A DNA stretch of 55,723 nucleotides, counting the filler, from Platydemus manokwari (lineage: Eukaryota), in NCBI GenBank assembly GCA_037951405.1. It is 4 parts of 4 records of this genome, joined end to end, with 100 filler letters (N's around TTAATTAATTAA, not from the genome) between each part and the next. Parts side by side here need not be neighbours in the genome. Positions count along the whole stretch, not along the records: positions 15,491 to 29,894 come from JBBMOY011468085.1; 3 more parts are not named here. One strand, written 5' to 3'. The notes below the pieces were generated by a model. That model had not been told where the DNA came from and made no database searches. It worked only from the letters and a program-made list of their open reading frames with translations. Shown here piece by piece: positions 15,491 through 43,742 of the stretch. Positions within the stretch are counted from its first letter, which is position 1. Every line of letters begins with the position of its first letter. The translations under genes and the position numbers were made by a program.

Positions 15491-15868
15491 TTTGTTGGGT
15501 TTACCAAGACACCCCCCCAGGGAAAAATAAATAATAAAATGATAAATAAGGCATAAATAATAATAATAATAATAGTATTATTATTAATAATATTAATAAT
15601 TAAAAATTAATTAATACTTGAAAGTCATTGAAAAATTCCCAGGGATTTTATTTTTAAACTACTTAAAAGAATAAGATAATCCTCGAAAATAATTTTTATT
15701 TTTAAAGCAGCCTAAAAGAGGCATTTAAATAAAAAATAAGGATCATCATAAAAATGTTTTCAGGGATTTGTTAAGGAATTTTAGAAATATGATCACACTT
15801 TTAGCATTTCAAGTATAATTTTGAAAATATCTGAAGAATTTTTCCAGATGAAGATCAGTCCCAAATAG

Positions 15869-15876
15869 TATATAAG
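15869..15876 (+). promoter_or_regulatory. Putative LTR TATA box
   Basis: TATATAAG here and TATAAAAG at the homologous position in the 3' LTR (29666-29673). A TCAGAG Inr-like motif lies ~35 nt downstream in both. Confidence 0.6.
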
Positions 15877-15919
15877 CAAAGGGATTTCAGTAGATTTTCA
15901 CCCCTCAGAGAACACAGTC

Positions 15920-16255
15920 GGATCAGATATAAAGGATCAGACATAAAGGATCAGATATAAAGCATCAGTGATAAAGGATCAGATATAAAGGATCAGACAT
16001 AAAGGATCAGATATAAAGGACCAGATATAAAGGATCAGATATAAAGCATCAGAGATAAAGGATCAGATATAAAGCATCAGAGATAAAGGATCAGATATAA
16101 AGGATCAGATATAAAGGATCAGAGATAAAGGATCAGATATAAAGGATCAGAGATAAAGGATCAGAGATAAAGGATCAAAGTCAGAGCTACCAAAGGTTCA
16201 GAGCTACTAAAGGATCAGAGCTACCAAAGGATCAGAGCCACCAAGGATCAGACAA
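15920..16255 (+). repeat. Tandem array in 5' LTR: 18 x 14-mer GGATCAGATATAAA, then ~4 x 16-17-mer TCAGAGCTACCAAAGGA
   Basis: Counted directly: 15920-16171 (14-mers with GACAT, GAGAT and GCATC variants) and 16181-~16255. Confidence 0.93.
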
Positions 16256-16787
16256 GTACTACTACTTCTTTTATTCTGGGCTGTGCTTAAAATTCCCCAC
16301 CAAAGGGTTATCGGTGAGCAACCGTTAGGGCTCAGTTGATAACTCGGGAGTTTTTAGCGTCAACGGAACCGTAAGATCTTTCCTTTTTGTTTCGTTTTCT
16401 TATTTTAAGTAAAGTATAATTTTATAAATAGTATTGTATGATATTCTTGATAATATTTCTTTATTAATATTGATTTAATTTTGCATTTGAACTAACATTT
16501 GATTAAACAGTATTTGGACTATAATTGACCATTATCGTATTTGTTTTACTTTTTACCATTGTATTTGTGTGTCGTGTTCAGAATTGATAGTGTGAGGGTT
16601 TGTGGAACATTTCAGACATTTTATTGTGATCCCAGACTTGTGCATTATCCTTTTGAATTTCAGTGTATTGTATTTTATTTCGGTGTGGTATAAATACAAG
16701 TGTTGCTTTACTGATTGTTTTGATTTGCACCACCTAAGATTTTGGAGTCAGGTTAAATTTGATACCCTAAATATTGAACATATTTAT

Positions 16788-16805
16788 TGGTGAGCCCGAC
16801 GTGAT
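16788..16805 (+). other. Primer-binding site complementary to tRNA-Trp 3' end
   Basis: TGGTGAGCCCGACGTGAT, one mismatch from the tRNA-Trp PBS TGGTGACCCCGACGTGAT. It continues TCGAA, complementary to the T-loop. Confidence 0.88.
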
Positions 16806-17187
16806 TCGAAAATCAGTTGGCAATTGTGAAACTGTGGTGCGTGATTGTGTTTATCGATTTTTGTGAAAGTTTGTGTGATTTGTTTTTTTTGGATTCTGTA
16901 AGCCCTGAGTGGCGTTTTGGTAAATTTTTGGAACTTTTAGTAAAGCCCGCAGAGGTATAAAAGTTGTTGGTATATTAATAGTGTTTGAGGAAGAAATCAG
17001 TTAGCGTTTAGAAACTAGTCTGGCTAGTGGAAAGAAATCAGTTACAGATATTCGAGGAGTTATAACCAGAAGTTCGACAAAGGTAATTAAAGGGAGAGGT
17101 ATAGAGGAAAATAATTTAGAAATCGAGGAGAATAATCGAGAAGCAACAGTAGAGGATATTAATACAGGTGTTAAAGAGATAGAAAGA

Positions 17188-18174
17188 ATGGATTACGAAT
17201 TAGTAAAGTTACCGGTTAGGACATTTAATGGGGAACCAACAGAATTTGCAGATTTTATGGCCGAGTATAGGCAAGTAGCAGAAGCTTTAGGATATGATGA
17301 GGCACGGATGGTAAGGAGATTACCGATTCATTTAAGTGGAATGGCAAGGAGTGCATATTATGACATAAATGTAGCGAACAAAACTTGGGCAGAAGTTGTT
17401 AAAGAGTTGACGAAGAAGCTAATTCCAGGAGACATAGGCAGAGTAAATAGGCAAATGTTCCATAAGAGGAAGCAAGGAACAGATGAGCCAGTAGGCGAAT
17501 ACGCATATCAAGTGGAATTATTAGCACAAAGGGCATTTGGACCAAAGAATCAGTGGACAGAAACAATTAAGAAGATTGTAGAGGATCAGTTCTTCATTGG
17601 AATGCTACAACCATTAAGAACAGTGTTAGGATTGGCGGATTACAAAGATTTTGAAGAATTATTACAGAAAGCTCGTAAAGCGGAAATGAATATTAAAGGA
17701 AACCCAACGATGATTTGTGAAATCGGAGCAGTCAGAAGAGATAACAGTAGGACTAGAAATACGGAAATAAAGCGGAATGAGACCAATGATCAGACAGTAA
17801 AGAAATGTTTTAATTGCCAGAAACCAGGACATATAGCAAAGCAATGTCGAGCTAGGAAATTAGAATTAGGTCCAGGTCCAGGAAGGGATCAAAGGAGAAA
17901 TATAGATATAGTTTGCAGAAATTGTAATGAAACAGGGCATTTTGCTAAAGAGTGCAGGATAAAGATTTGTAGATATTGTAACAAAAGAGGACATTTGGAA
18001 GAAACGTGTTGGGCAAAGAATTCACCCCAAAGAGATAACGTAAATATTGATGGAAAGGTACAGTGTTTCAAATGTAAGCAGTATGGGCATATGGCGAAAT
18101 CTTGTCTTAGCGAAAAGACGTCACCAAAAGTAGTTAAAAGATTGGCATTCAGCAATGCAAAAGTAAACATGGTA
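17188..18174 (+). other. gag: Gag domain (capsid + nucleocapsid with four CX2CX4HX4C knuckles)
   Basis: Retrotransposon-gag-like motifs (FNGEP..F, LSGMARSAY, RKQGTDEPVGEYAY). Knuckles: CFNCQKPGHIAKQC, CRNCNETGHFAKEC, CRYCNKRGHLEETC, CFKCKQYGHMAKSC. Confidence 0.9.
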
Positions 18175-21100
18175 AGAGATAGAGAAGAAGATGATGAAAC
18201 AGAAAAATTAAGAGCCGAAAACGAGGAATTAAAGCGACAGTTATTCAGAGTGATTGGCCGAGAAACAATTTCGATGATTCAGCCCCAGGACAATGGAATC
18301 AAGATATTAACCAGAAATGATTCGCTAGAGGAAAAAGTGGATGTTAATGGAAATGTAATCATGGCTTTGGTGGATTTAGATCAAGAAGAATACAATACGC
18401 TTCCTGAAGTGTTAGAAAGAGAATTCGCAAGAATACCGAGAAACAAAGACAGGATTATGGATTTATTAAGTCAAGTAACGGAGTTGGCGGTTACTCCAAT
18501 GATGCTCGGTAGGATAGTTAAGGTGATAAAACCACATATAATGGAATTCGGTGTTCAACAAGCAGAGATTCGATCTGTAATCCGAAGATACGGGAGATAT
18601 ATGAGATTAAGAGGAATGGATCAGCGACCAATAAAAATCAAATTGAAAATGGTTGGATGGGAAGAAATGAACGTGGAATTACACTATTGTGCAAGGGTTC
18701 GTACAATAAGAGAAAAAGCGACTCAAGTAATGGGAAGAGAATGGATCATCGTAATTTTCTGGAATACATACCAGCTAGATGACGACGAGTATTTAATGGA
18801 CTGCGGATGCAATGCAGATGAAGAAACGGTAATAATTGCAGTTCAAGTGGATAGCAACGGACAGCCCGTGTTAACCGGAAATAGATATGAAGAATTAATT
18901 AACCAGACTGGCCAAGGAAGTTTGAGACCACCAGAAGGGACAACGGAAGCACTACGATCTGAAGTTACAGATCCAGACTCAGTGGTTTTAGAAGAAGTAT
19001 CCGAGGAAGAAGAACTCCAAAGACCAATAGGAATATCGCCAGTAGAACAAGCCCAAGAAGAACCACAAAGGGAAGATATTTCAGGACCAGAGGAGCAATC
19101 AAGACCACGACAAGTAAGACCCGGAAGCAATCCAGTTGGGAGACCAAGGAAGGACCCAAATGCTCCACGTCCTCAAGGAATAAGTCGAGAAACTAAAAGA
19201 ATTGTACGAAGGGAGTATCTACACAGATTAGCCGACCGTTACAGGAGACAGCATGAGGAAGAAGCATATGACGAGGCTACAAAAGGAGATCAGGAGCGAT
19301 TACGAAGATTGATCGAATTAATGGATCCATCCATGGAGGCAACCGGAGAACCAGATAATTTAACTATAGAAATATTCTTGGAAATGTCGAAAATTTTATC
19401 AGATATAGAAGATTTTGTTGAAGAACCAGACAGTATGAGCGATGAGGTATGGCTAGCACAATTATGTGAAGGAAGAATGGACAAAGAAAAGGCAATGGTA
19501 GGAATAGCGTTAATTTTGAAGAGAGCCGATAAAATGAATCGGGAGTCAGGGAGACAAAATACAGATATATTAATTCGAGGGGCAAATAAAATGATTGAAG
19601 ACTATTTTGGACCATGGATGCAATTAAACCAAGGATGGCAAAGTTTATTGGGAGTAAAACAGACCTCGGAACCAGATATGGGATCAACTCCAGAAAGATC
19701 ACCCGAACCTCCAAGAAGACAATCAGAGTTTAGACAAAGAACCAGGAGGGAGGAACAACAAGACGAGCCGAGAAGAGATAATAGTCAACCTAGAGGGGAT
19801 AGACGATCGTCAAATGATTCACTATTACCGATGATGTTGATAATGATCATGATGTTCTTAAATATGATGAATCGAACAAATGCATTAGTGGCATACGATT
19901 GCACAAAACCAAAGATGGGAAAAATTTATTCGCTAGTAGATCTCGAAGAATGTCCAGAGGCATATCCAACGAACTTAACAAGTAGAGAGGTGGAATATAA
20001 CATCTACCAAGAGACAGAATTCAGAAGAGCGAATGTTAAAGAATGCATTGTGAAAAAGGCGACTTTTGAGTATTACTGTGGCGTTCACAGCAGAACAGCA
20101 TTTTTGGAAGCAACTCTCATACCAGTTCCAGTTATTGTGAACTCGGAAAACTGTGAATCGGCATTCGTAACAGGAAAGTTACAAATTGCAGCAGGATTAG
20201 CAATTGACGCAAAAATAGGAGTAAGGACAAGACAAGCCATTACCGAAGGAGGAAGTATAGGAGCCGATGGTACATGCAGTGGCAGAGAAAAGTACAGGAA
20301 AGGCGAAAAAGTATCATGGGTGGTCACATATTCAGATTATATGGTACAATTGAGAGAATTTGAGGGAGTATTCGACGCTGTCACAGGAAAAATGCTGTCA
20401 CACCCGTTTTGCAATTTTAAACACACAACATGTGACACAGGAGAATCATTATTGGTATATAGGGTACCATCCACAGATTGTGATATGGTATTTCTGAAGA
20501 AGGTAGTGTTCACGCAATTGGAAGGCGAAAAAGAAAAAGAAAGCATGAGTCGTTCCAGGAGAGTGAGTAAAATAACAAGAGTAACAGAAAGAGTGGAAAA
20601 GGAAAAGACACCAATTGTCTTAATAAGCAGAGATAAAAACGAGGGGATCAGATTTGTCAGGAGAGAGCGAAATCTTAAATGCAATACGGAAGTTTACACT
20701 ACAAATCACAAGGGAATATTCGTCAGTTATCATGACATGGTTGGAGCAAAAAGAGTGAGTAAAACAGATGTGAAGCTAGCAGATTACACTAATACAAAAC
20801 TTGATTTTGTATATCATGTGTTACAACAATCCATGAGAGAGATGTATCATGAGGTTGTAGGGAATGATTGTAAGCTAAATCGGGAGTTGTTGAGAACTCG
20901 GTTTGCAATGATAATTAGCAACCCAGAATTAGTAGCGCCAATGCTCTTACCAGATCAAGGGGTTTTTGCTAGAATGATGGGAGAAGTGATTTACAGTTAT
21001 AAATGTGCAGTGGTGAACGTGCAACTTAGACGAACAGAGGAATGCACCAACGAATTACCAGTCGTATGGGAAAACGAGGAACGATATGTATCACCAGTTA

Positions 21101-24100
21101 CACGAATCTTATTGGAAAAGGAAGCAAAGCCAAAGGTGTTGGAATGTGGGGCAGCAATGTCCCCGATATATAAAATAACTCAGGATATCTGGATTACACT
21201 TCCCGATCGAAAGGAAACAAGCAAGGTGGAAAACTTGGAGTTGTTAAAAATTGAAAGCGGATTAAAGTTTGAGGATTTAGATGAATTGGCGTCAGGAGGA
21301 ATTTATACTACGCAAGATATTGAAGAAGCTAGAAGAAATATGATGTTCCCAGAGAGAAGAGAAAGAGTATTAACCCATCTAGTAGATGCGGTGATGCAAG
21401 GGAACGGAGGATCAGCAGATAAAAGAAATTACGAGGTTCTACTTAGTCCAGACCATTACAAGAAAGCAGCCATGAAACTGTTGGAAAAGACATGGGGAAA
21501 ATTTACAGGATTTGGAAATTTTATGGCAGGAATAATTGGAATTTACACAATATTCATGTTGGTTAAATGGGGATTATCTCAAATAATGTCGGTATACACG
21601 TTATACAGGACTATCGGGTTCACATGGAGATTGATTACAGCATGTTTACCATTTTTAGCAAAGTTTGTTATTATCCATCATCATGGAAAAGAGCTAACAA
21701 AGCTTAAGAGAATTTTTCATGAAAGAAAACCAGAGGAACCAGAAGGCGAATTGGAAGTGGTGGTAAAAACATGTGAAAGTTCAACTAGTAGTAATGAAGG
21801 CGAATCCGGATTTTTCTCACATCAAGCACAAAGACCAAAAATAAAGAGGAAAAAGAGAATACCGACAGCGCCAGTCGGTGGCGAATATCTCAAGATTGAT
21901 AGGAGATTACCCAAGGTGCCGGTTCGTTATACATCATTAATTGGGTTACGTCCAACAATATATCCGACATTAGATCCGTTTATTTACGACGAAATACCAG
22001 GAAAGGAGCAGGACGCAGATGGAAAAATGGAAGAGAAACAGCAAGATCGAGAACTCGATGAGGAAGAAGTAGCTAGATTAGGAGTTCCAGTATACAAGCC
22101 CAGAGTAAACATGATTAAATCAGGAAAACGAAGAGTCGATGATAAGAGTGTAATAAAGGTCAAAATTAATGGAAGGTTGGTATCAGCGTTACTGGATTCA
22201 GGAGCTACTGTATCAATTATTAGCGATAAAATTCTAACAAATGGCGAAAGGAACAATATGAAACCAGCATCAGGAGCCCAAACATTGACTGGACAGAATT
22301 TTGAGTTTCAAGGGAAGGTAATATGTGTAGTCGAACTAGGAGGTCACAAGATAGAGCATGGCATGCGAGTAATGACCAATTGTCCGTACGATGGGTTAAT
22401 CGGAATGGATATCCTATCGCAGCTACAAGGCGTAGCGTTTGATTTAGTCACAGGAAATCTTATCCCAGTTCACGACAGCAGAGGACGCAGGCGTGCAGTG
22501 AACGATATAGTATTGCATGAAAATCTACTACTACCGCCGAGAGCAGAAACAGTATGCTTTATTACAGCAGGAGTACAAGGAAAGGGAGCAATGCATTTTA
22601 AGCCCAGTATCGAATTGCGATGGTTACATGGGGCAGTTGACGAGGTAGTAGAAATAAGAGACGGAAAGATTCCAATACGAGTAGTAAATTTTGATGTAAA
22701 AGAAAAACAGCTTTACACAAAAATGAAGATTGGACAATTACAACCTTTAACAAATGAACCTTACGCAGATTCTATAAACGTATTACGGCCAAGTACAATT
22801 AAGAAATATAAACCAACAATTATCACAAGCCAGAATTTGACGGAAAGGCAGCGAGAGTATTTGCAGAAAGTAATTTGGAAATTTGATCATGTATTTGCTA
22901 AGGATGACTACGACTTAGGGTGTACACATATACTCAAGCACAAAATTGTTTTGACAGATTCCGCACCCATTAAGCAAAGGGCCTATAGACAACCATACGC
23001 ATTAGAAGAAGAAATAAACCAGCAAATTAATGACATGTTGAAAGTAGGAACTATTGAGCCAAGTTCCTCACCATGGGCATCACCCGTAGTAATGGTAAAG
23101 AAGAAGGACGGATCAATCAGAATGTGTATTGATTATAGGAAGGTTAATGAAGTAACCAGGAAAGACACATATCCTATACCAGTGATAGAAATGATGTTTG
23201 ATAAAATCAAGAGGTCGAAAATATTTACCGTAATGGATTTACAAAAAGGATATAACCAGGTGGCAATGGATGAAGATAGTAAAGAAATTACTGCTTTTGT
23301 GACAAGTAAAGGTCTATATCAATACAATAAGATGCCTTTTGGGTTAACAGGCGCTCCAGCAACGTTTCAAAGATTGATGAACTTGATATTAATGGATGTT
23401 GAGCATGCAATGGTTTACCTAGATGATATAATAATCTTTTCTTTGAATGGAGATGAACACATAAAGGACATAGCAGCGGTCTTACAAAGATTAAAGGTAG
23501 CAGGATTAAAAGTGAAACCAACCAAATGTGAATGGGCAAAAAGCGAAGTAAAATACGTAGGTCATATAGTATCAGGATCAGGAATTCGACCAGACCCAGA
23601 GAATGTGAAGAAAGTGGCGAATTTTGCAACACCAAAGAACACAAAGGAAGTCAGAGAATTCCTTGGATTAGCAGGATATTACAGGAGATTTATAAAGAAT
23701 TACGCAAAAATAGCAGCACCGTTGAACGATTTGTTAAAAGGGGAAGCAAAGGCTCTCAAACGAAAAGTAAAACGAGAAAAGTTAGTCAATATAATAGAAA
23801 AACAAGTAAACAAATTTGTGTGGGGAGACGAACAACAAAAAGCATTCGAACAATTAAAAGAACAATTAATAAGTGAACCGATATTGAGATACCCAGATAT
23901 GGCAAAACCATTTCTGTTAATGACAGATGCAAGTGGATACGCAGTAGGAGCAATTTTAGCGCAACAAGCAGAAGGCGAAAAGGATCACGTCATAGCATAC
24001 GCAAGTAGGGGATTGAAGAAACACGAACTTAACTATGCAACAATAGAAAAAGAAGCGCTAGCAATAGTATTCGCAGTCAAGAAATTCAGACATTATTTGT

Positions 24101-26919
24101 GGGGACGGAAAATTACCCTGTTTACAGATCATAGTCCATTACAGTGGTTATTGAAAAATAGAGATACGGCAAGTCGACTTATCAGATGGGCTTTGATATT
24201 ACAGGAATATGACATCGAAATTCGTTACCGGAAGGGAAGAGCAAACGCAAATGCGGATACATTATCAAGGATGAAGCAGGACGAATTATCAAGCGAGGAA
24301 GCACAGCTGGGAGAAGAAGATGAAACGGTATTAGCAGTAATCCGACGAGTAAACACAGTGGATTCTAGAGAAGAAGATCAAAAAGAAGACGAAGATATAG
24401 TATTGATAAAGGAATGTATGGCGGGACAAGTTCCGGAAGATTGGCAAAAGAGTTGGGAAAAACTAAAGGACAAATTCAAAATTAAAGAGGGCATTTTATA
24501 TTTTATCAGAGACAAAGAGTTATGCTATGTAGTACCTAGTAAGGATAGGGATCCAATAATGATGCAATATCATGACGGGGCACTAGGAGGACATCTATCA
24601 GCAAGGAAAACGCTATCAAGAATTTCAAGAAAATATTTTTGGCCTAAGATGGAACAAAACATAAGGAATTGGTGTCAATCATGTAAAATCTGTCAGACAC
24701 GGAAAGGAACAGGAGCCAGAACAAAAGTGCCGCTCAAACCAATCAGAGCACCATTGGCACCCATGGAAATGGTAGCAATGGATGTCGTAGGACCATTACC
24801 AGAAACGACAGATGGAAATCGATATATACTGGTAATGTGTGATTACTTCACGAAATGGCCAGAGGCCTATGCAATGAAAAATCAGAAGGCGGCAACAATA
24901 GCAAAACTTTTCGTAGAAGAAATTATTTTTAGATATGGAGCTCCCAGGAAATTGTTAACGGACAAAGGAACAAATTTTATGAGCGAATTGATAAAAGAGA
25001 TATGTGTTTTATTCGCGATACTTAAGCTCAATACATCACCATATAGACCACAAACGGATGGATTAGTAGAAAGATTTAATGGAACATTGCTCAAGATGCT
25101 TTCGTCGTATACGAACAAGGGTCAAACAGATTGGGATGTACACATATCGTCATGCTTATTTGCATACAGAAACGCAGTTCATACTGCCACAGGAGAAACC
25201 CCATTCTATCTAATGTATCTCAGAAACAATAATATGCCGATTGATTTAGACTATGTAAAACCAACTTCGCAATATCTGGAGGAAGAAGATTATAAAATAA
25301 CAATGCAAGAAAGACTACAGGAGGCATGGGAGAAAGCAGGGCTCAATATAAAATATGGACAAGAAAAATACAAAGAACGATACGATAGAACGGCAAAAGA
25401 ACATAATTTTAAAATTGGAGATAAGGTCATGGTAGAGACACCGGAACCAATACGAGGTAAGACACCTAAGCTTCAAAGAACGTTCAAAGGTCCGTACACC
25501 GTAGAAAAAGTAACACCAACAAATCTTTCTTTAGTAAGCACTCGAAAATCTGGATCATCATTTATAGTTCACGCCAATCGATGCAAGAAATGGGTGGAAC
25601 AGACCAAGGAACGGTATCCGTTACGATCCAGAGAGCAGAAGAACCTGGTAGCAAGTGTTAAACCATCAAGATGGTTTTGGCTACCCTTAATAATGATGAC
25701 AATTTGTGGAACAACAGGGGAGACAAAAATGAAAGAAATCAACATCAGCGTAAGAAGCACAGGAATAAAAGTTTCAGGAAAGCCTATGCGACTAGTGGTC
25801 CAGTGTATTGGTATTCAATCGGAACACAATCAGGAAAAAGAGGGCAAATGTCGAATACCATACAGTGTCAGAGATAATATTTACATCAGAGTAAAGGAGC
25901 ATGTAAACAAGACCGACATTGCACAGTTCAAAGTTATCTTTTTGGGCCCTAGAAATCGAAATTGGCAGGGGTCTAGAGTAGTTGAAATATTAATAATTTG
26001 GTTCAATAGCAATTATACTCTTGGGATTGTACATATAGATGAAGAAGAGCCATCATATACTCCGAATTGCGGATGGAAAGCATTAACAGCGCATAAGAGT
26101 TTTAGTACCGTCTTATGGGGAACTGTTAAAGACTGCCAATACGAGGACTTTGACAATTTGGAAGAAGAGATAGAAGAATCGAATTCAATAACGAAAATCA
26201 AATGCTCTAAGGAAAATGAAACGAACATTAAAGAACAATTGGACGTACTATACAAAGACAAGGGACCGAGCAGACGTGGACTCAAACCCGCTATAAGGTG
26301 GACAACAAGTACGAGTGGAGAAATGAAACGGAGACGCAAGACCACAACTACACCGAGAACGACGATGAGGACGAGCAAAACGATGAAAAGCACGAGTAGA
26401 AAAACGACATCAGAACGGAAAACAGAAACTACAACATCAAAAGGAACAAGCCCAGGAGATGTGCAAACCAAGAAAATGGAAGTATCAACGAAACCCAGCA
26501 CTAGACGTTTTGTTAAAATCAATCCAATAAAAGATGGAATTAATTGGGAAGTGAGGAAACCGGTACCAATAATTTCCCCGAAGAGAAGTAAGAAAGGAAA
26601 ACTAGGATCAAGAAAACGAAAGTTAGAAAAGGAAGCAGTGGAGAGAATGACAAATTGGGTTATGGCCGCAGGGGCTTGTGGAGCAGCACTGATAATTATG
26701 TCTACAGCAGCATTGTGTTGCCATGTTAGGAAACGTTGGAGAAGAAAACGAAGAAGGGTAATGAAGAGGAAAATGAAAAAGTTGTCAAGTTTGGAACTTC
26801 CAACCGAAATCCAGCCGCTAGCAAGAAATGAAGAAAATTGGATTTTAGAGCCGTGTCCGAAACAGGAAATGTACAATCAGATAACAAGTTTCAGGCGAAT
26901 AGAGGAGCATATAGTTTGA
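17188..26919 (+). CDS. 3243-aa Gag-Env(gB/chuvirus-like)-Pol-membrane protein polyprotein
   Basis: Uninterrupted ORF. It has a Gag capsid-like region, 4 CCHC knuckles (17806-18105), a Cys-rich glycoprotein (19822-21675), protease LLDSGA (DSG 22195), RT YLDD (23416), RNase H TDASG (23923), IN HHCC (24571-24693), D-D-E (24781, 24961, ~25069), GPY, and a C-terminal signal-ectodomain-TM module. Confidence 0.97.
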   Translation: MDYELVKLPVRTFNGEPTEFADFMAEYRQVAEALGYDEARMVRRLPIHLSGMARSAYYDINVANKTWAEVVKELTKKLIPGDIGRVNRQMFHKRKQGTDEPVGEYAYQVELLAQRAFGPKNQWTETIKKIVEDQFFIGMLQPLRTVLGLADYKDFEELLQKARKAEMNIKGNPTMICEIGAVRRDNSRTRNTEIKRNETNDQTVKKCFNCQKPGHIAKQCRARKLELGPGPGRDQRRNIDIVCRNCNETGHFAKECRIKICRYCNKRGHLEETCWAKNSPQRDNVNIDGKVQCFKCKQYGHMAKSCLSEKTSPKVVKRLAFSNAKVNMVRDREEDDETEKLRAENEELKRQLFRVIGRETISMIQPQDNGIKILTRNDSLEEKVDVNGNVIMALVDLDQEEYNTLPEVLEREFARIPRNKDRIMDLLSQVTELAVTPMMLGRIVKVIKPHIMEFGVQQAEIRSVIRRYGRYMRLRGMDQRPIKIKLKMVGWEEMNVELHYCARVRTIREKATQVMGREWIIVIFWNTYQLDDDEYLMDCGCNADEETVIIAVQVDSNGQPVLTGNRYEELINQTGQGSLRPPEGTTEALRSEVTDPDSVVLEEVSEEEELQRPIGISPVEQAQEEPQREDISGPEEQSRPRQVRPGSNPVGRPRKDPNAPRPQGISRETKRIVRREYLHRLADRYRRQHEEEAYDEATKGDQERLRRLIELMDPSMEATGEPDNLTIEIFLEMSKILSDIEDFVEEPDSMSDEVWLAQLCEGRMDKEKAMVGIALILKRADKMNRESGRQNTDILIRGANKMIEDYFGPWMQLNQGWQSLLGVKQTSEPDMGSTPERSPEPPRRQSEFRQRTRREEQQDEPRRDNSQPRGDRRSSNDSLLPMMLIMIMMFLNMMNRTNALVAYDCTKPKMGKIYSLVDLEECPEAYPTNLTSREVEYNIYQETEFRRANVKECIVKKATFEYYCGVHSRTAFLEATLIPVPVIVNSENCESAFVTGKLQIAAGLAIDAKIGVRTRQAITEGGSIGADGTCSGREKYRKGEKVSWVVTYSDYMVQLREFEGVFDAVTGKMLSHPFCNFKHTTCDTGESLLVYRVPSTDCDMVFLKKVVFTQLEGEKEKESMSRSRRVSKITRVTERVEKEKTPIVLISRDKNEGIRFVRRERNLKCNTEVYTTNHKGIFVSYHDMVGAKRVSKTDVKLADYTNTKLDFVYHVLQQSMREMYHEVVGNDCKLNRELLRTRFAMIISNPELVAPMLLPDQGVFARMMGEVIYSYKCAVVNVQLRRTEECTNELPVVWENEERYVSPVTRILLEKEAKPKVLECGAAMSPIYKITQDIWITLPDRKETSKVENLELLKIESGLKFEDLDELASGGIYTTQDIEEARRNMMFPERRERVLTHLVDAVMQGNGGSADKRNYEVLLSPDHYKKAAMKLLEKTWGKFTGFGNFMAGIIGIYTIFMLVKWGLSQIMSVYTLYRTIGFTWRLITACLPFLAKFVIIHHHGKELTKLKRIFHERKPEEPEGELEVVVKTCESSTSSNEGESGFFSHQAQRPKIKRKKRIPTAPVGGEYLKIDRRLPKVPVRYTSLIGLRPTIYPTLDPFIYDEIPGKEQDADGKMEEKQQDRELDEEEVARLGVPVYKPRVNMIKSGKRRVDDKSVIKVKINGRLVSALLDSGATVSIISDKILTNGERNNMKPASGAQTLTGQNFEFQGKVICVVELGGHKIEHGMRVMTNCPYDGLIGMDILSQLQGVAFDLVTGNLIPVHDSRGRRRAVNDIVLHENLLLPPRAETVCFITAGVQGKGAMHFKPSIELRWLHGAVDEVVEIRDGKIPIRVVNFDVKEKQLYTKMKIGQLQPLTNEPYADSINVLRPSTIKKYKPTIITSQNLTERQREYLQKVIWKFDHVFAKDDYDLGCTHILKHKIVLTDSAPIKQRAYRQPYALEEEINQQINDMLKVGTIEPSSSPWASPVVMVKKKDGSIRMCIDYRKVNEVTRKDTYPIPVIEMMFDKIKRSKIFTVMDLQKGYNQVAMDEDSKEITAFVTSKGLYQYNKMPFGLTGAPATFQRLMNLILMDVEHAMVYLDDIIIFSLNGDEHIKDIAAVLQRLKVAGLKVKPTKCEWAKSEVKYVGHIVSGSGIRPDPENVKKVANFATPKNTKEVREFLGLAGYYRRFIKNYAKIAAPLNDLLKGEAKALKRKVKREKLVNIIEKQVNKFVWGDEQQKAFEQLKEQLISEPILRYPDMAKPFLLMTDASGYAVGAILAQQAEGEKDHVIAYASRGLKKHELNYATIEKEALAIVFAVKKFRHYLWGRKITLFTDHSPLQWLLKNRDTASRLIRWALILQEYDIEIRYRKGRANANADTLSRMKQDELSSEEAQLGEEDETVLAVIRRVNTVDSREEDQKEDEDIVLIKECMAGQVPEDWQKSWEKLKDKFKIKEGILYFIRDKELCYVVPSKDRDPIMMQYHDGALGGHLSARKTLSRISRKYFWPKMEQNIRNWCQSCKICQTRKGTGARTKVPLKPIRAPLAPMEMVAMDVVGPLPETTDGNRYILVMCDYFTKWPEAYAMKNQKAATIAKLFVEEIIFRYGAPRKLLTDKGTNFMSELIKEICVLFAILKLNTSPYRPQTDGLVERFNGTLLKMLSSYTNKGQTDWDVHISSCLFAYRNAVHTATGETPFYLMYLRNNNMPIDLDYVKPTSQYLEEEDYKITMQERLQEAWEKAGLNIKYGQEKYKERYDRTAKEHNFKIGDKVMVETPEPIRGKTPKLQRTFKGPYTVEKVTPTNLSLVSTRKSGSSFIVHANRCKKWVEQTKERYPLRSREQKNLVASVKPSRWFWLPLIMMTICGTTGETKMKEINISVRSTGIKVSGKPMRLVVQCIGIQSEHNQEKEGKCRIPYSVRDNIYIRVKEHVNKTDIAQFKVIFLGPRNRNWQGSRVVEILIIWFNSNYTLGIVHIDEEEPSYTPNCGWKALTAHKSFSTVLWGTVKDCQYEDFDNLEEEIEESNSITKIKCSKENETNIKEQLDVLYKDKGPSRRGLKPAIRWTTSTSGEMKRRRKTTTTPRTTMRTSKTMKSTSRKTTSERKTETTTSKGTSPGDVQTKKMEVSTKPSTRRFVKINPIKDGINWEVRKPVPIISPKRSKKGKLGSRKRKLEKEAVERMTNWVMAAGACGAALIIMSTAALCCHVRKRWRRKRRRVMKRKMKKLSSLELPTEIQPLARNEENWILEPCPKQEMYNQITSFRRIEEHIV
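19822..21675 (+). other. env: Envelope glycoprotein domain, chuvirus/herpesvirus-gB-like (putative class III fusogen)
   Basis: Hydrophobic signal LLPMMLIMIMMFLNMMNRTNA, then LVAYDC...YSLVDLEECP. 14 ectodomain Cys, GEVIYSYKC..V.V..R.TEECTNELPV motif, RSRR furin-type site, SGGIYT motif and C-terminal hydrophobic segments. The pattern was recognised by eye as chuvirus-like G. Confidence 0.78.
22102..25620 (+). other. pol: Pol: aspartic protease, reverse transcriptase, RNase H, integrase
   Basis: LLDSGAT, SPWASPVVMVKKKDG.IRMCIDYR, MPFGL, YLDD, TDAS, EKEALA, TDH, H-x6-H...C-x2-C, MDVVGP, TDKG, GLVERFN, FKGPY. Confidence 0.97.
25672..26919 (+). other. Second type I membrane protein fused after integrase
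   Basis: Signal-like WFWLPLIMMTICGTTG, ectodomain with 4 N-glycosylation sequons (NIS, NKT, NYT, NET), T/S/K-rich stalk, TM WVMAAGACGAALIIMSTAALCC (26656-26721) and polybasic tail RKRWRRKRRR. Confidence 0.7.
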
Positions 26920-27157
26920 ATGGGTATGAGTGATGATACGGTATGAACAGATGTTTGTGTTAAATAATTAATTATTACTTATTATATATGTATTTTATTT
27001 TCATTTTTCATTTAATTTTTTTTTCTTTCTTCCTTCCTCTCTTTCTTTTACCTCTAGTGTGTCGTATCGCTAGGAATATTAAGCACAGTCCCAGATAAAA
27101 TTGTTATATTGTCGTATATATAACAATTAATGATATTTTATTTCCAGAAAACAAACA

Positions 27158-29167
27158 ATGGAATATTACAAGCCCGGCATGAAGCCCGTCACAATCACTT
27201 TTCCGTCATTTATAGTCCAAGAACAACCGAGAATGAACCATTTGTTAGGGAAAGTTGATTTAAATAAACCCCTTACACTGGAGAAGAAAATATCAGTAAT
27301 AGGCGATAAGGGAGTAGAAATAATGAGGAACTGGTTTAGGCAAAACTCCGGAGCTATGAAATGGTTCCCGGAAGTAGAAGCCATCCCAAACAGATTAAAG
27401 GGCCGAAGGACAGACAATCGGCAAATGTTCTGTATTGGGAAAAGAATCCCAGCGATCGATTTGGTTTACCTCAGCCGATGGGGGCAAACCATAGATTTCC
27501 TGAGCACTGGTAAAGTGTTAGTAATAGAAAAACGGCCACAAGAAATAAGAGCCGAAGAATTTCTACCAGAAGCTCAGGCATCCCTCATTATGAAAGGAGA
27601 AGCGGATGTGGAGATCTATTTAATTCCAATCCGGCCTACCATTATAGAAGTGACCAACCGAAGAAGAGAAGAATGGAACCCAGCCAGAAAAGAAAAGCCA
27701 GAATGGGACATCATCCCACCCGAAGAATGGAACAAGAGGCAACCATTTGCTGACAGCAAATGGTTAGCAAACCCCGATGAAGACCAAATAGTCATATTGG
27801 ACGTCAAATTGGGCGTACCAATGTTTATGAATAAAATGGTCCCCTTAGGAGCAGCTTTATCAGATAGAAGAGGAAATTTCTATTTCCGCTCCATAATAAC
27901 ACCTCGCGCTTATATAGCCGATTACAGGGCAGCTGACCACGGAATAACCCAAGACATAGCTCAGGGACAAATGGATGAGTTGGCAGCAAAGTTGGAACTA
28001 AGCAAATTATTGGAAGGGAAAATAGTAATAGGATACGAAGTTAAGAAGGCTTTGGAAGCAGTAAGAGTCGATAAAAGCTGGATAAGAGGGTATTGGGATT
28101 TGGCAACCTTACCCATCTTAAAGAAAGATAAATTGATCGCGTTAAGAAGAGATGGAACAGCTTCTTTACATTTATTGGTTCAATATTACGCGAACAAGAG
28201 AATGACAGACAGAAGAGGATGTCTGGCTCTAACCAGAAATGCATCTTTTATGCAAGGAGTATGGGCAAGCGTAGCTGAAAGATGCATCGAAGAAATGCAA
28301 GAAGAAAGAAGAAGAAACATTAACCAAAAGGTGGAAGAAAAGAAGACAGGTTTAGAACAGATCAGAATGAGTAGAAATGAAGTAGTTAAGGAAATTGGTA
28401 AGCATTTGATACAACAGATAGAGACAAAGCCAACAACTAGTAGAATGTTGGAGGAATCTGTAATGGAAATCTCAGAGTCCTCAGATGAAAAATCGCAGGA
28501 ACCAAGGAAAGTAGACGAAGCAAGAAGTATAACGCCAAACAACGAGGATATGTTCTCAGACAATAGCGAAGATAAGCAAGAAAGAGACAGTTTGGCAAAG
28601 AAATATCAGAAGTTTAGAAGAAGGTTTAAATCACCCCCAGTGGATATGGATGACAGTAGTGAAGAATTTGAGGTAATGTTAACTAGAGAAGAACATGCCA
28701 GGAGACAACGGGAAAAAGAGAAAAAGAAAGAAACTGAAGTAAAGATAGTGGTAACGGATTTTGAGCGAAAAGTTGTCATAAACAAGTCACCAAAAGACAC
28801 AAGGGGAGGAAAAGAAGATAAGATAGAAGAGGACGAGGTCGTGGTGTTAACTGAGACCATAGACCTATCAGGGGAGACTACAGAAGAAGAAGAGGAAGAG
28901 AAAGAAGACAGTCAGGAATCAGAAAACCCTAGTAACAAGAAGGAACAAAGAACAGGATTGCGGTTAACATCATCATTAGCCGACATCCATGAAATGAGTA
29001 AAACTAATGGATGGTTTTGGAAGGAAATAGTGTTGGAGTCGAAGAAGACAGGACAGGAATTAGTTTTAATAAATGATAGGAAAAGGAAGTCAGCAAGGGA
29101 TCAACAAATGATGGGAAAGATGGAATGTGACCGGGCCAGAGCCACGAAGAAGACAAAGAGGAGCTGA
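27158..29167 (+). CDS. Element ORF2, 669 aa: degenerate DEDDh (REXO4/ISG20-like) exonuclease domain plus acidic/basic low-complexity tail
   Basis: 27788-28265 aligns by eye to REXO4/ISG20: VILDVK, I.P...IADYR...GI, L.KLLEGKIVIGY, WDL, SL..L. The ORF is intact, lies inside the LTRs and has the same A-rich codon bias as the polyprotein. Confidence 0.75.
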   Translation: MEYYKPGMKPVTITFPSFIVQEQPRMNHLLGKVDLNKPLTLEKKISVIGDKGVEIMRNWFRQNSGAMKWFPEVEAIPNRLKGRRTDNRQMFCIGKRIPAIDLVYLSRWGQTIDFLSTGKVLVIEKRPQEIRAEEFLPEAQASLIMKGEADVEIYLIPIRPTIIEVTNRRREEWNPARKEKPEWDIIPPEEWNKRQPFADSKWLANPDEDQIVILDVKLGVPMFMNKMVPLGAALSDRRGNFYFRSIITPRAYIADYRAADHGITQDIAQGQMDELAAKLELSKLLEGKIVIGYEVKKALEAVRVDKSWIRGYWDLATLPILKKDKLIALRRDGTASLHLLVQYYANKRMTDRRGCLALTRNASFMQGVWASVAERCIEEMQEERRRNINQKVEEKKTGLEQIRMSRNEVVKEIGKHLIQQIETKPTTSRMLEESVMEISESSDEKSQEPRKVDEARSITPNNEDMFSDNSEDKQERDSLAKKYQKFRRRFKSPPVDMDDSSEEFEVMLTREEHARRQREKEKKKETEVKIVVTDFERKVVINKSPKDTRGGKEDKIEEDEVVVLTETIDLSGETTEEEEEEKEDSQESENPSNKKEQRTGLRLTSSLADIHEMSKTNGWFWKEIVLESKKTGQELVLINDRKRKSARDQQMMGKMECDRARATKKTKRS

Positions 29168-29260
29168 AAGGAGAGCCGAAGACAAATGATAAACAATGAT
29201 AACTATTTAGTGATTTAGTGAAATTAAATAAATTTTTTTGTGATTACGACTCAGTTAATC

Positions 29261-29294
29261 AAATTCGAGGGGTCGAATTTTTATAAATCGGGAG
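29261..29294 (+). other. Hairpin AAATTCGA-GGGG-TCGAATTT followed by short polypurine tract before the 3' LTR
   Basis: Perfect 8-bp inverted repeat at 29261-29280, then AAATCGGGAG immediately before TGTTTG. Confidence 0.65.
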
Positions 29295-29894
29295 TGTTTG
29301 TTGGGTTTACCAAGACACCCCCCCGGGGAAAAATAAATAATAAAAATGATAAATAATGCATAAATAATAATAATAATAATAATAATATTAATTAATTAAA
29401 AATTAATTAGTACTTGAAAGTCATTGAAAAATTCCCAGAAATTTTATTTTTAAAATACTTAAAAAAATAAGATAATCCTCGAAGATAATTTATAATTTTA
29501 AAGCAGTCTAAAAGAGGCATTTTAATAAATAATAAGGATAATTATAAAAATATTTTCAGGGAATTGTTAGGAAATTTTAGGGATACGATGATACTTTTAG
29601 AATTTTGAGAATAATTTTGAGAATTTCTGAAGACTTTTTCCCAGACGAAGATCAGTCCCAAATAGTATAAAAGCGAAGGGATTTTAGTAAATTTTCACCC
29701 CTCAGAGAACGTACAGAATAATTAGAAGAGGAAGATAGTATTCGATTTTAAAACAGAAGATATTATTCGATTTTGAAACAGAAGATATTATTCGATTTTG
29801 AAACAGAAGATATTATTCGATTTTGCAATAGGAAGATAGTATTCGATTTTGAAACAGGAAATATTATTCGATTTTGAAACAGAAGATATTATTC
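29295..29894 (+). repeat. 3' LTR (truncated by gap)
   Basis: Starts TGTTTGTTGGGTTTACCAAGACACCCCCCC and aligns with the 5' LTR up to CCCCTCAGAGAAC (29710). Confidence 0.88.
29731..29894 (+). repeat. Tandem array in 3' LTR: ~6.5 x 25-mer GAAGATATTATTCGATTTTGAAACA
   Basis: Counted directly; the array runs into the gap. Confidence 0.92.
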
Positions 29895-30131: not shown

Positions 30132-30554
30132 ATGTTACGTACTAAAGCACTTTCTACAACACTTAATCATTATGTTGGGTCTGGAGTTGATTCGATATTA
30201 TTATTTACTTCTGAAGGAATTATACTAGCCCAATCAAACGTAAATTCGAACGATGAAAAAACTAAGGCTGCAATTGTCGCAAATATATGGAATATTTATC
30301 AAAGACAACAAGATAATGTACCGGTTGTATGTGAATAATATTTTTAAAAATTTTATATCCTAATATCCCAGGACGATCAAATTCAGGAACTATTAATAGA
30401 ACTAGAATTTGGAAAATTGGCTATTAGTAAAGTTGGAACAGTGTTATTATGTTTATGTGGATCTCGAAATGCTGAATTTGGAATGATAAGAGCAAAAATG
30501 GTCACATTAATTGACCGATTAACTGATCCAATTTGTAAATTGACAGGGGTATAG
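30132..30554 (+). CDS. LAMTOR2: Ragulator complex protein LAMTOR2 (roadblock domain), 2 exons
   Basis: MLRTKAL...GVDSILLFTSEG...AAIVANIW / ...LLCLCG...FGMIRAK matches LAMTOR2 (MLRPKAL, AAIASNIW, FGMLKAK). Exons 30132-30326 and 30372-30554 with a phase-0 GT..AG intron. Confidence 0.92.
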
Positions 30555-36345: not shown

Positions 36346-39300
36346 CTAATGATCAGGAGGATCGACATTTTCATATATGTTTGTACATAAATGAGAAAAT
36401 ACAGCTAATAAGTGAGAAAACGTTGGTCTATCTTCAGGTCTGTATGCCCAACATTGCTGCATCAGCATATATACTTTGTCTGATGTGAATTTTGGTCTTG
36501 GAAGTCGAACACCTTCTTCTATTTGCCGTAAAACCTCAAAACTATCTTGCTGCGCGTACGGATGTTCTCCTAAACTCCACATTTCCCATAGGCATACCCC
36601 ATAACTCCAAACATCACTGGCATGACTGAATGTTTTATAATAAATTGATTCTGGAGCGTACCATTTCACCGGCCATTTACCACGTCTTGTGGCTTTATAA
36701 TAATCGCTTTCAACGCCAACTGCTCTCGACAATCCAAAATCACTAATTTTGCAACAATTCTCATTAGACAATAGAACATTCCTACAAGCCAAATCTCGAT
36801 GTACAAATCCTTTACTCTCTAGATAAGTCATACCGCTAGCAATCTTCCATGAAAAAATTAATATTTTTTATCATTTATAATCGATTCGATATCAATTTAT
36901 ACCTGCATCGCCCAGTTGTGAAGATCACTAAGTTGAATCTTTTCAGGATAATCTAGTAAATAATCTAAAAGTGATCCCAAATTGGCAACTTCTAATATCA
37001 TCATTAGTCTCTTATTTTCACACACCCCATACATGGTAATGATATTTGGATGAGATAATTGCATCATAATACTTGCTTCTTTCATAAAATCTAATCTTTG
37101 AGATGGCTGTACCAAAACCTAAACCGAAAAATCGATATACATTTTACGGAACTATTCATAAATATTCAGTTAATCATGAAAAACAGTTCAGTCTCGAAAT
37201 AAACAGATAAAGAAATCAAAATAAAACATTCAATTATTTAATGAAAAATTAGATGATATATTGAGTTATAATTTCAAATCGGTAGAGTTAACTACAGAAA
37301 CCATCCAATAACTAGGAATTCTCAATATTTCAAGTTTTTTTAAAAATATATTAAGTAAGTCGCTCTGATATACAGTCGACCGGAACGAAGAAAATGTCAT
37401 TATTTCTCGGATATCAGCAATATTTATTTTGTATTTCTTTAAATTTATATACGATCTGATTTTACATTTAACTTTAGTTATAATACTGTCAGTACCATCC
37501 CATTTAATATGTCCATAGGCGTTTATATCTTAAGTAATTCTTAATAAAGATAAAAATTATCAAAAGATTAAATAAAAATTTCCCTTAATTAAATTTTAAT
37601 GCGGCTTATATTTGATAATTTAACCCACCGATACTAAACCATTTTAGTTTTCATACCATTAAGAAATCTGTTATACATAAAAAGGAAATTTATTGAGAAT
37701 ATTGGAGAAACAAAATATAATCTTTTCTTTATCTTAGTTATAAATCACTATTCAAAACTAACTTCTGTAGCATTTACACCATTTTTATTTAATTAGACAT
37801 TTCTTTATATTTGCAAATGCCAATTGTTTACATTAAATAAAATAACAAAATTATAATTAATGCTGTAAAACTAATAAAAATTAATAATTATTTATTTATT
37901 TATTGAGTACCCCTAGAATTCTTGTGCTGTGCCTTTTGAGAACAGGTATCAATTAGGAGCGATTTATTTATAAAAATATATTATAAATAGTGAATTACAA
38001 AGCATTTATTAGAGAGCTTTTCGATTTCTCAGTTAATTATAAAACTCGAATCGTATGAAATAAAACATCTTATTTATAAAATACAAATATAAAATATAAA
38101 TATCACCTTAACAGCAACTTCTTCAACTTGGCCATTATCTAAATGCAGTCTACCTCTATATACTTCGCCAAATTCGCCTTCGCCAAGCCTGTATAACAGA
38201 ATGACTGCATCGCTTGGTATCATTCTGATTTCTGAGTTATTATTGGCCATTTGACTCCAAACACCTGAGCTGCTACTAGAACTCAACCTCGGCGGATTAT
38301 TGCTATTTAGATTCTAAATACAGATAAAATGTTATTAGTTTATCACTCCAGATCAAATTATAATTAAAATTATTATCGCCAGGGAAACACCTATTATTTG
38401 AAGGTTCTGTGTAAAACATTTTCATAACATCACCAATATTCAAAGCTGTCTAACTAAACAATTAACCTTGAGTTATGGCCCAAGTTTCAGTTTCAATTAT
38501 TGTATTTGAATAGTGCGGATTTTTGCTTTTGTACTAATAATAAAATAGATTTTCATTTAGTATCAAGATTGACAATCTAGAATATCTGATAAAATTAAAT
38601 AAACGACAAATTAATTATTTTTAATTATAATTAAATTTAAAATTATTTTGGAGTTTTTCTAATGAAAATAGTAATTTTATTAAAAGAAATTAAATAATCG
38701 ATATTAATAAAGATTTTTCCCAAAATCTAGAAATACTCAATAATTAGTATTAATAGCAGTAAAATTATGAAATGAGAGTAAAAGCAGATTTCAGAACTAT
38801 GGAGATAGGAAAATGCACTCCACTATCAAAGGAATGAGGAATCTAAAATTTACCGATTTTATAGAAGCGAAAAAATACAGTGATCTTCAAAAATGAAAGT
38901 TATGGATGTAATGTGATTCAATGAACTATTTTAGAGTACCAATTTAGACTATTATGGAACAAAGATCACTGAGATTTGTTCGATTTCAAATCGTATTAAT
39001 TTAAAATATAAATATAAAGTACAATATAAAACAAATACATAAAGTAAAAACATTTTATAAAGCATAGATATATTAATGTTTTATTCGGAAGAAGAATCTT
39101 TCCAAAATTATCAAAAGTAAAAATGCTCAATGGTAAAGCCATTGAATTGACAACGATAAGCTGTTGATGAATAAATTTATAATTAAAAATCTCGACGTGC
39201 TATATCAAATATGATATATAGATAATTATATGCGTTATTTATATTTGACACATATCTTAATCTACGAATAATAACACAATGTTTAGATCAAAAATATGAT

Positions 39301-42300
39301 ATCGTAAATCATATTTCACAGTTGTACAACATAATAGTTATTGTATTTCAATTAAAATGTTGAAAAAGATTTCCAATAAATAAAATTGACCTTTCAAAAC
39401 TCGGAATATCAAGTCCATTTTTATACTCCCCCGTAACTTAAGTTTATTTAAAAATGACGAATCAAAAACATTGTTCAGACCTCTGTCCATCCATTAGAAA
39501 TTCTTACTTAGCTAATTCAGAGTACCCGATATTTATCACATAAAGGGAATAATATTGGATCTTCAATTTTGTCAATGAAAACTAATAATTTGGAAAATTA
39601 TAAATTCTATCGACTTCTAAAATATTTTTCTCGATTCTAAATGAATTTATTATTAATAAATAATCAAATTTACTCTTAAATAATTCTAACCATATGATTT
39701 TAAATTTAAATTGTATGTTAAAATTGAAAGTAAAGAACAATTGTATAAACCTCTTATCGATTTTATTTTTATTCGTGATAAATATTTCATTTTTCAACAA
39801 ATTATATTCGTGATAATGAAAAGATCATTAACAAAAATATACATTTCCAATTCTGCTAATAACATTTTTCAAATAACTCTTAATTGACTTTCTCGAATCA
39901 CAAAAATTTTCCACAAAAAAATTCCAAAATTGTCTATTAGCCATATTTATTGTGACAAACATAAATGTCACAGAAACCTAATTTTTCTCCGATTTCAGTT
40001 TAAAAAACCGACCCAAAAACCACAGAAAATATATCCAAATCAAATCTATCAAATCAGTAAACCAAAGATTACACAGATTCGTCGTATCCAATGTAAACAG
40101 TCAACACTTCACAATTGAATGTTTAAATGTATGATTATGGAGAAATTATTGTGAAAACATTCATAAATTTCAGACTGCCAAATTTCAAAAATATAAGTCT
40201 GTATGTGCGTGTATGCACGATTAATAATGCCTGATTAATGCATTCAAAACTACCAGCCCACACTACAAATTAATCCGTTCCAAATATGTTTCGGTCAATG
40301 TCGTGTCAACGTTCCGCGTACGAACTATTTTTAAACACTTAACCAAAACCTTACGTGTAGTAAATTAGATTTATGCTAATCTGCACAGCAAAAAATCAAT
40401 GGAACACCGTCACTAGATTATTGATAACTTTCAAAACAAATCAGTTCAGCTCAATACAGAAATAATAATGAATTAGTTAATTAAGAAAAGCAAAGCGATG
40501 ATTGAAAGTCAGTTTAAATTTAAATGGTCTTTGTCGTTAGAAAGATTCATTAAATCTGTGTTAGACGATGTTCAAGAATGATTTATCTCAACTACAAACA
40601 TCGAAAATGCTATTCGGTAGAAATTTAAATAAAGATCAAAGATAAAACTTATGGTCTCGTATAATAGCTATATATAAATTGGTTTCATCAAGTATTGTGT
40701 TCTTAGTTTTCAGACGAATATAAAATTTGTAAACTACCGAAAGCATCAGTGCCCTAAATTTCCAAATCTATAATTAAAGATTGTGTTTTCACTCACCTCA
40801 AATCACATGAAATTTTTAATCCCATAGAAACTAAATGCTTTGGAAAAAATGATTTATATAATAAACAAGAAATTATTTTATTGTGTAAATGTTTAAGCCA
40901 AGATATCAACAATCGATTTGGCCAAAATAAATCTAGTTTACATGCGATTGAGAATTATTACGGTATTATAGAGAGACACGTATTTGATGTTAATTAACTT
41001 TTGTATTGATTAAAATCATTATTATAATACATGTATCACTAGCAATCATTAAGACAACAGAATATCTGTTCTCCTAACAAAAGAGAATGGCATTTCTCAA
41101 ATGACAGAAATTTCCCCATCACAGAAATTTTTCAGCAACTCCATCTCATCATTGAAGAAATCTTGAATTTATATTTACGATTTAGTACAATATGCTAACG
41201 TTTAATAAAGACTTATGCTTTTTGATCTCAAAACGAGATACCATATCTCATTGATTGATGTTGTATAAATTATTCAATAATTTGTATGAAGAATGTTTTT
41301 CCTTAAGACGCAATATAAAATATAATTTATGGATAAGGAATAATTTTTCAAATTAACCATATCACGATGAACGATAGATTTCTCTACAGCATCAGCATTA
41401 TTGAATTTTTAATCCAAAAATTTTGTCAAGTTTTAAGGCAATCATATTTCATTGCTGATTCCGTAAATAATTGTCAAAATTATGAGAAAAATCATTCGTC
41501 AGACGCTATTAATCAATTACAAAAAAAGGAAATGTATATAAAATAACTATCAACATTACACAAAATCGATAAATTCCAATGTAGAATTTCAGTTTGTATA
41601 TCAGTTGGACTAGAATATAGATAACATTGTATAAGTGTAAATTAATTTAAAAATTGCTTCGAAGACTTTTAAAGATATTGGAATGCTTAAAAATGCACAT
41701 AAACAGTAATAAAAATTAATGAATTTATGTTTGTGAAATTTTTGAATTGATTTCTTCTATCAAATACAAACATTCGTGACAAGTATATTAATTATTCCTC
41801 AAATAAATTATCACTCCAATGTATTATCTCATCATTGTTGTTTGAATAATCAAATCGATTATTTTTATAAAAGATATTAAATAAATAAATAATTCAAGAT
41901 TAACACAACAAAATAAATAATCGAAATAAACAAAGCTATGATTAAACTTCACTTTTTAATATTCATCTAAAATCGAAAAATATTATCCAAAAATTATTCA
42001 AACAAAATCAAACTCGAATTAAAATGAAATTCTAATTTTATTTCCATTGTAAAGAAAGGAAAGTTCCAGATTGTTTAAATAGCGAATCGATGAGATTATA
42101 ACATTTGCATTTACTGAGTATCTTCTCAGTCGATAAAATCAATATTTGAAGATTCTTTTTAAATTGCCAAATTTATATATATTATTAATTTTCTTAATTT
42201 GCTGCTTTAATAAAACATTTATTTTCGTTTTCATGTAGACAGCCATTGGTAAAATTTAATTGACAAAAAAGATTTTCTCTAATTTAAACATTTTTCAAAT

Positions 42301-43141: not shown

Positions 43142-43742
43142 CTGAAATAAATATAATTACACTCATATAGATTAAAAACACTAAAACATATTTTACAAAT
43201 CTCAATTAATTATCGGGCACTATACAGATATGTTCCAACATAATTTTTACACCCTTATTAATGAGAATTATAACAAAGAAAATATTAATTCAAGTTTAAA
43301 ACTAAAGGTTGGGACCAAATATCAATTTAAAAAAATCCAAAAAAACTTATAATTCTTAAGCCTCAAAATACCAAATATTCGACAAATAAATTTCAACAAA
43401 TATGTAAATATTCAAAATTTCTCACGATCGTTAATATATAGAAAATATTCAGTTATGCCAACATTAATTAGATTTTTATTTGTCAACAAAAGATGATTAG
43501 TTAGTAAGCATATCAATGACTATCTCGAGGAAAACTTTAAGTTTTGTGCGAACATGTTCGAACCTACATTTTTCGTAACTAAATCCATACCATTTTACTT
43601 GCTATAACTGCATCAAATCAACCTGAGAAAATAATTATGATGATTAAAGTATAAGCTCAGGGCTATTATGAAAAATATAATAAAATCAAATATCATATGA
43701 TAATGATTTATATTTCCTTGTATTGATTGTTCATGAAAAGAT

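Follow-up and report, generated by a model that had tools for sequence, protein, structure and literature searches.

We report that a long terminal repeat (LTR) retrotransposon of Platydemus manokwari (GenBank assembly GCA_037951405.1) very probably encodes a second membrane protein directly behind its integrase, in the same open reading frame (ORF) as an upstream fusion glycoprotein of the glycoprotein B (gB) type. The element was found in a stretch of 55,723 nucleotides, here called the window, in which four parts of four records are joined by filler; all positions are those of the window, and all features of the element lie on the + strand. It occupies 15492 to ~29894 (record JBBMOY011468085.1), has a size of ~14 kb and is cut at each end by an assembly gap. 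A CCHC Gag, the order PR-RT-RH-IN (protease, reverse transcriptase, RNase H, integrase), LTRs and a primer-binding site are all present, and the element is therefore a Ty3/gypsy LTR retrotransposon. It also fits the gB-type errantiviruses of GAG-ENV-POL order, as a gB-type env with a signal and a membrane span sits between gag and pol.

A Predicted Second Membrane Protein behind the Integrase

The polyprotein ORF (17005-26919) is one open frame of 3,304 codons, which reads gag, gB-like env, PR, RT, RNase H, IN and the second membrane protein; amino acids are numbered from its first codon, the first-pass annotation of this DNA having started at Met62. The gB-like fusion glycoprotein, of class III (19885-21579, with its ectodomain and span; Pfam Monjiviricetes_fusion E 3e-96, Glycoprotein_B E 0.002) is preceded by a predicted internal signal peptide (signal 1, 19819-19884), and similar segments were seen in all 14 relatives inspected. 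The enzymes (22147-25632) end with the integrase tail RYPLRSR (aa 2870-2876), past which the frame stays open. The chance of 424 open codons at this base composition is ~3e-14, and the ~415-aa continuation that the annotation had noticed corresponds to W2890-V3304, 415 residues.

This extension begins with a second predicted signal peptide (signal 2, 25660-25719; aa 2886-2905) with a basic n-region, a 12-residue core and small residues at -3/-1, whose best 13-residue hydropathy of 1.65 is below the 2.45-3.65 of the relatives. It is followed by an ectodomain of 180 aa (25720-26259) with five Cys and sequons at N2913, N2968, N3003, and N3071, and by a Ser/Thr-rich, strongly basic stalk of 133 aa (26260-26658; 37 S/T, 39 K/R, 10 D/E). 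A predicted membrane span (26659-26724; aa 3219-3240) with a 19-residue hydropathy of 1.97 includes C3238-C3239 at its end, and the cytoplasmic tail (26725-26919) starts with a polybasic patch, 12 of the 20 residues after the span being K/R. Judged by hydropathy and motifs only, these features are those of a type I membrane glycoprotein, i.e., a signal peptide, luminal sequons, one span, and a basic cytosolic flank. The signal-like stretch, the cysteines, the four sequons, the stalk, the CC-ending span, and the basic tail named by the annotation were all found where it had placed them; its description of the ectodomain as beta-rich holds as a sequence pattern only, the single-sequence AlphaFold model (pLDDT 41) being unreliable. 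The extension was shuffled 2,000 times, and in no case were both hydrophobic segments in place. No R-x-x-R furin site was found in the ectodomain or stalk, and neither a start of its own nor a splice acceptor could be assigned convincingly upstream of signal 2, where there are only two weak AG sites.

Conservation of the Slot in Related Elements

Relatives were collected with the gB-to-integrase region as the query, which gave 73 polyproteins; a locus scan added L001 and L002, of which L002 matches P0006, and L003 was left out as too short. Eighteen relatives are close, with 47-65% integrase identity, and 56 are distant, of which 54 could be scored as two are without an integrase match. With the hydropathy cut-off set at 1.6, just below the values of the window, a signal and a membrane span after the integrase were present in 15 of the 18 close relatives versus 3 of the 54 distant ones. 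By eye the three distant proteins (P0029, P0039, P0041) look like ordinary in-frame env proteins without an upstream gB, and one weak match to rhabdovirus G was obtained among them. In a quick RT-IN tree with 30 rows, for which 31 of the 74 proteins were entered and P0040 was dropped (P0022 and L001 not included), the window element fell within a clade of 17 rows (SH-aLRT 97) as sister to P0009. Both L001 and L002 have the same layout, and in both, as in the window, the polyprotein is followed by an ORF2 for a DEDD exonuclease.

As a layout of predicted segments in this slot the second protein is real and clade-wide, and the annotation is supported in its view of a further type I membrane protein that has no relation to gB. 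Such a protein is atypical for LTR elements in general; within its own clade it is the rule. A juxtamembrane Cys near the inner end of the span is present in 10 of 15 relatives. It should be noted that it is the layout that is conserved, while the extension sequence is without a direct homologue: homologue searches returned none of 2,070 candidates and none of 1.84 billion sequences at E 0.001, the PDB gave nothing, Pfam gave no credible match over the last 430 residues, a whole-protein Atlas search was also empty, and further locus scans detected no relatives.

Other cargo was seen in these polyproteins. Extra aspartic-protease copies, up to three per polyprotein and often with one between the integrase and the second signal peptide, occur in P0003, P0004, P0005, P0007, P0008, P0011, P0012, P0013, P0019, and P0022, and P0006, P0010, P0011, P0019, and P0022 carry ubiquitin-like domains, ankyrin repeats, and C2H2 fingers, a cargo resembling that of Burro elements. 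P0014 is filed under a Flavobacteriaceae metagenome-assembled genome (MAG) though it belongs to this animal-type retroelement clade, and is probably a binning contaminant.

Ectodomain Folds

Eleven relatives have in common a ~100-aa two-Cys repeat, present in one to three copies, which scored 16-59 bits when each element in turn was left out of the profile. L001, which had no part in profile building, scored 41.5 bits, with none of 300 shuffles as high. An alignment of 13 rows, one being the first domain of the window protein, gave weak E-value matches to receptors bearing fibronectin type III (FN3) domains in the PDB and in the protein database, the profile matches being neogenin, PTPRF, EphA2, and DCC. 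On this alignment AlphaFold modelled the repeat of P0017 as FN3 (pLDDT 91), and the best Foldseek matches of the model were FN3 domains of fibronectin and Dscam (E 3.6e-4). In 12 relatives the ectodomain is FN3-like. Among the others, P0015 carries an Ig domain, as does its homologue P0016, the domain of P0013 is short and Cys-rich, P0007 is FN3-like by eye only, and no assignment was obtained for P0009. P0015 and P0016 also have a multibasic furin-like site behind the Ig ectodomain together with a weak span; their second protein is possibly a shed form.

Two assignments were tried for the window ectodomain, and neither passed a profile test, which leaves it without an assigned fold. Its FN3 match by eye was not significant, a post-hoc subtype profile included, and on a cellular FN3 profile 83 of 300 shuffles scored as high. 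Methyltransf_FA (PF12248), a lead from the Atlas that looked good by eye, scored 0.77, which is chance level; on a profile of 13 domains, for which four source ORFs were confirmed by Pfam, the window ectodomain reached -0.7 bits, with 775 of 1,000 shuffles as high. Going by the tree, divergence from FN3 would be the most parsimonious guess. Methyltransf_FA domains were also seen in bacterial MAGs among L004-L019 (four in tandem in L014, positions 208-2538, and with DM9 repeats in L012) and in the giant-virus contig L019.

The Cytoplasmic End

A terminal Val was found in 12 of 16 clade tails (11 of 14 with twins merged) versus 4 of 56 outside the clade, and an end of the form S/T-x-V/L/I in 9 of 16 versus 2 of 56; the tail rows are related, so p-values would overstate these differences. 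The clade tails are otherwise unalignable, with a median identity of 18%, and by eye those of the relatives contain Tyr and Pro motifs. We take the S/T-x-V C-terminus to be a class I PDZ-binding motif. Taken together, the conserved terminal Val and the juxtamembrane Cys support a C-terminus that would be cytosolic and under selection.

Public Runs and Variation within the Family

Ten public runs contain the stretch, with no RNA run among those listed. Four were examined, one of which may be the source of the DNA of the window itself. The junction between integrase and extension was crossed without gaps by contigs of all four, ~60 bases between the end of the ORF and ORF2 lying outside contig coverage, and the internal sequence of the element was nearly identical across them. 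Among the 40 of 233 difference rows listed, those of the main contigs were synonymous in 3 of 3 cases on the pol side and in 5 of 8 in the extension, where 21-32% would be expected (p 0.012-0.07). The ten runs, all of 2024, carry ten different coded organism labels, and each contains 79-92% of the words sampled from 24500-29300; separate strains, a single campaign, a parasite in common or transfer could each explain this occurrence.

Proposed Role and Alternative Explanations

Our preferred explanation, to which we give about even chances, is that the second type I glycoprotein acts at the cell surface as a partner of the gB-like protein, in adhesion or positioning. The ribosome would then thread the polyprotein through the endoplasmic reticulum (ER) twice: first signal 1 and gB up to membrane span 1, then, after PR-RT-RH-IN in the cytosol, signal 2 and the ectodomain up to membrane span 2. 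Both glycoproteins would be freed by signal peptidase, one copy of each per Gag-Pol, and the integrase would likely be cut from the signal stub by the protease of the element. The stalked ectodomain could bind a host surface molecule or glycan, while the tail, putatively palmitoylated and PDZ-binding-like, would hold the protein at a polarised membrane or at a junction between cells; there particles would bud or move on into a neighbouring cell, with gB carrying out the fusion. More tentatively, and with the odds against it, the clade may have an entry apparatus of two glycoproteins, both made from a single Gag-Env-Pol frame. In it a conserved gB fusogen would be combined with a receptor-binding module (FN3, Ig, or other) that is exchangeable within the former env slot, and the PDZ-binding tail of this module would direct the element to cell junctions, from which it could spread between cells. 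In herpesviruses gB needs partner proteins; for gB-type retroelements, a variable second surface protein that would be produced in equal numbers with gB is a concrete candidate for the means by which the target cell is located. The retroelement polyprotein would moreover pass the ER membrane twice, once on either side of its enzymes.

Several observations weigh against such a partnership or against its operation in the window copy. Among the close relatives P0015 and P0016 have the signal with a weak span, and P0005 has neither and is without the second protein. The signal and membrane span of the window are among the weakest of the clade, 7 of the 20 residues preceding the span are basic, and the tail ends in EHIV, so that the final Val of the clade is kept, S/T at -2 is lost and a class I PDZ-binding motif is not formed. 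On the FN3-like profile of the clade the window ectodomain scored 6.6 bits, with 9 of 300 shuffles as high (the FN3-looking P0007 likewise failed to score), and hhalign gave no match. In a second copy fragment four of the five differences listed in the stalk were non-synonymous, and low-depth copies contain indels. A cleavage-like motif after the integrase, found in 13 of 18 relatives against a background of 11%, was defined post hoc, is half-matched by the window and in two cases falls inside the signal itself. Finally, gB has a second hydrophobic segment (1.4-1.65) which, if it crosses the membrane, would invert the topology. A predicted complex of gB and the ectodomain (score 0.00) speaks neither for nor against the pairing, the fold of the partner being uncertain.

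A less likely alternative is a real surface glycoprotein that acts on the host cell as a receptor mimic, by decoy, interference with signalling or a block to re-entry, and not in particle attachment. The conserved cytoplasmic end and the FN3 and Ig ectodomains of the relatives fit such a mimic and an attachment protein equally well: these are modules of the host-receptor type, as the matches to neogenin, PTPRF, EphA2, and DCC indicate, the tails have Tyr/Pro motifs and PDZ-binding-like ends, and the clade gathers other regulatory cargo (ubiquitin-like, ankyrin, C2H2). The free swapping of ectodomains (FN3 in one to three copies, Ig, Cys-rich, unassigned) nevertheless does not point to a single host target, and the protein occupies the slot that env has in distant elements.

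We regard it as quite unlikely that the protein functions in the clade and is a drifting remnant in the lineage of the window. The weak signal and span, the missing profile match, the loss of S/T at -2, the degenerate motifs of ORF2, and the LTRs, which are only ~90% alike, would agree with decay; the 424 codons are nevertheless still open, the sequons, CC, basic patch, and final Val are retained, and the listed differences show a synonymous excess. There is very little to recommend an integrase extension that stays in the cytosol or nucleus and uses its basic stalk to bind nucleic acid, since the 39 K/R versus 10 D/E of the window stalk and the weak signal 2 stand against relatives with strong signals and strong spans, with sequons and folds of the extracellular type, and with stalks that are mostly not basic. 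Equally slight is the case for an independent cell-cell fusogen of the FAST type: a single span, a juxtamembrane Cys, and a polybasic patch recall sORF2 and FAST proteins (PMC11952523), but these are proteins of 63-107 aa with ectodomains of ~30 residues, whereas ectodomain and stalk here come to 310 aa and a gB is already present. An assembly chimera or chance read-through, suggested by the gaps that bound the element and by its differing LTRs, is scarcely credible and largely refuted, as the junction is bridged in all four runs (one perhaps the source of the window) and L001 and L002 share the layout with ORF2 behind it.

Further Features of the Element and Its Surroundings

The 5' LTR (15492-16787) begins at the assembly gap and contains 14-bp tandem repeats, and the 3' LTR (29298-29894) extends into the gap and has an unlike tandem repeat of 25 bp. 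Over the aligned part of these two cut copies 372 of 411 bases are identical; the LTRs are thus only ~90% alike, yet the ORF is intact, and the mismatch may reflect a recombinant or an assembly that merged two subfamilies. The 5' LTR is followed by a primer-binding site (16788-16805) that is putatively tRNA-Trp-like. The zinc knuckles of Gag (17806-18105; Pfam zf-CCHC E 1.4e-16) are separated from signal 1 by ~530 aa (~18200-19800) without a Pfam match, a region where relatives have ubiquitin-like domains. Behind the polyprotein, ORF2 (27134-29167) has an ISG20-like DEDD exonuclease domain (PDB phmmer E 7.8e-7; tblastn versus L001 ORF2 E 2.9e-11), the acidic catalytic motifs of which look degenerate while those of L001 and L002 look intact; the exonuclease of the window also carries a long acidic/basic tail.

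The surrounding host genes, linked to the element in the window only through gaps, are presumably an NR2E-like nuclear receptor (6231-6671), a LAMTOR2-like gene (30150-30500), a Syk-like kinase (36346-43156), a LARP1-like gene (47433-48446), and an ATF6-like bZIP gene (50638-53295), judging by their motifs; they indicate an animal host.

Comparison with Known Systems

An in-frame env placed between gag and pol has been described for the planarian gypsy-like elements Burro/GYPSM1 (PMC6431247), which share with the window element a single giant ORF and accessory ORFs, and with its relatives the ubiquitin-like and ankyrin cargo; the description available names no membrane protein after the integrase. 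Compared by description only, the window element at ~14 kb is far smaller than Burro and has no match to BIR, BCL2, MATH, or dUTPase. Errantiviruses of GAG-ENV-POL order with an HSV/gB-type env have been described from Nematoda, Bryozoa, and Platyhelminthes (Chary and Hayashi, PMC13524379) and, in the portions seen, resemble the window in a Ty3/gypsy pol and in a gB-type env with signal peptide and span before pol; those portions describe no second glycoprotein, and the main text is without fibronectin, immunoglobulin, ankyrin, or exonuclease. The ordinary gag-pol-env order, represented here by P0029, P0039, and P0041 (Dingle, 10.1101/2020.05.07.078311, consulted in part), has a signal peptide, ectodomain, and span directly behind the integrase as in the window. 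In such elements, however, the fusogen fills the post-integrase slot and there is no upstream gB, whereas in the window the fusogen is upstream and a non-fusogen is in the slot. Rotifer LTR elements (PMC5408684) have likewise captured, behind pol, a DEDD exonuclease as well as small membrane ORFs, but according to the sections covered these replace env as ORF3 and none combines gB with a second type I protein.

The gene order is thus already in print, for Burro and for the GAG-ENV-POL errantiviruses, while the second protein was not found described in the material at hand. Our literature search, in which the supplements of the main GAG-ENV-POL paper were only partly covered, returned no paper on a second membrane protein after the integrase.

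Entry systems of two proteins are formed by G or H with F in paramyxoviruses and by gD or gC with gB in herpesviruses. The window element resembles them in having a fusogen and a separate stalked glycoprotein; it has no sequence or fold link to them, both of its proteins come from the Gag-Pol frame, and it is by analogy that the two might cooperate.

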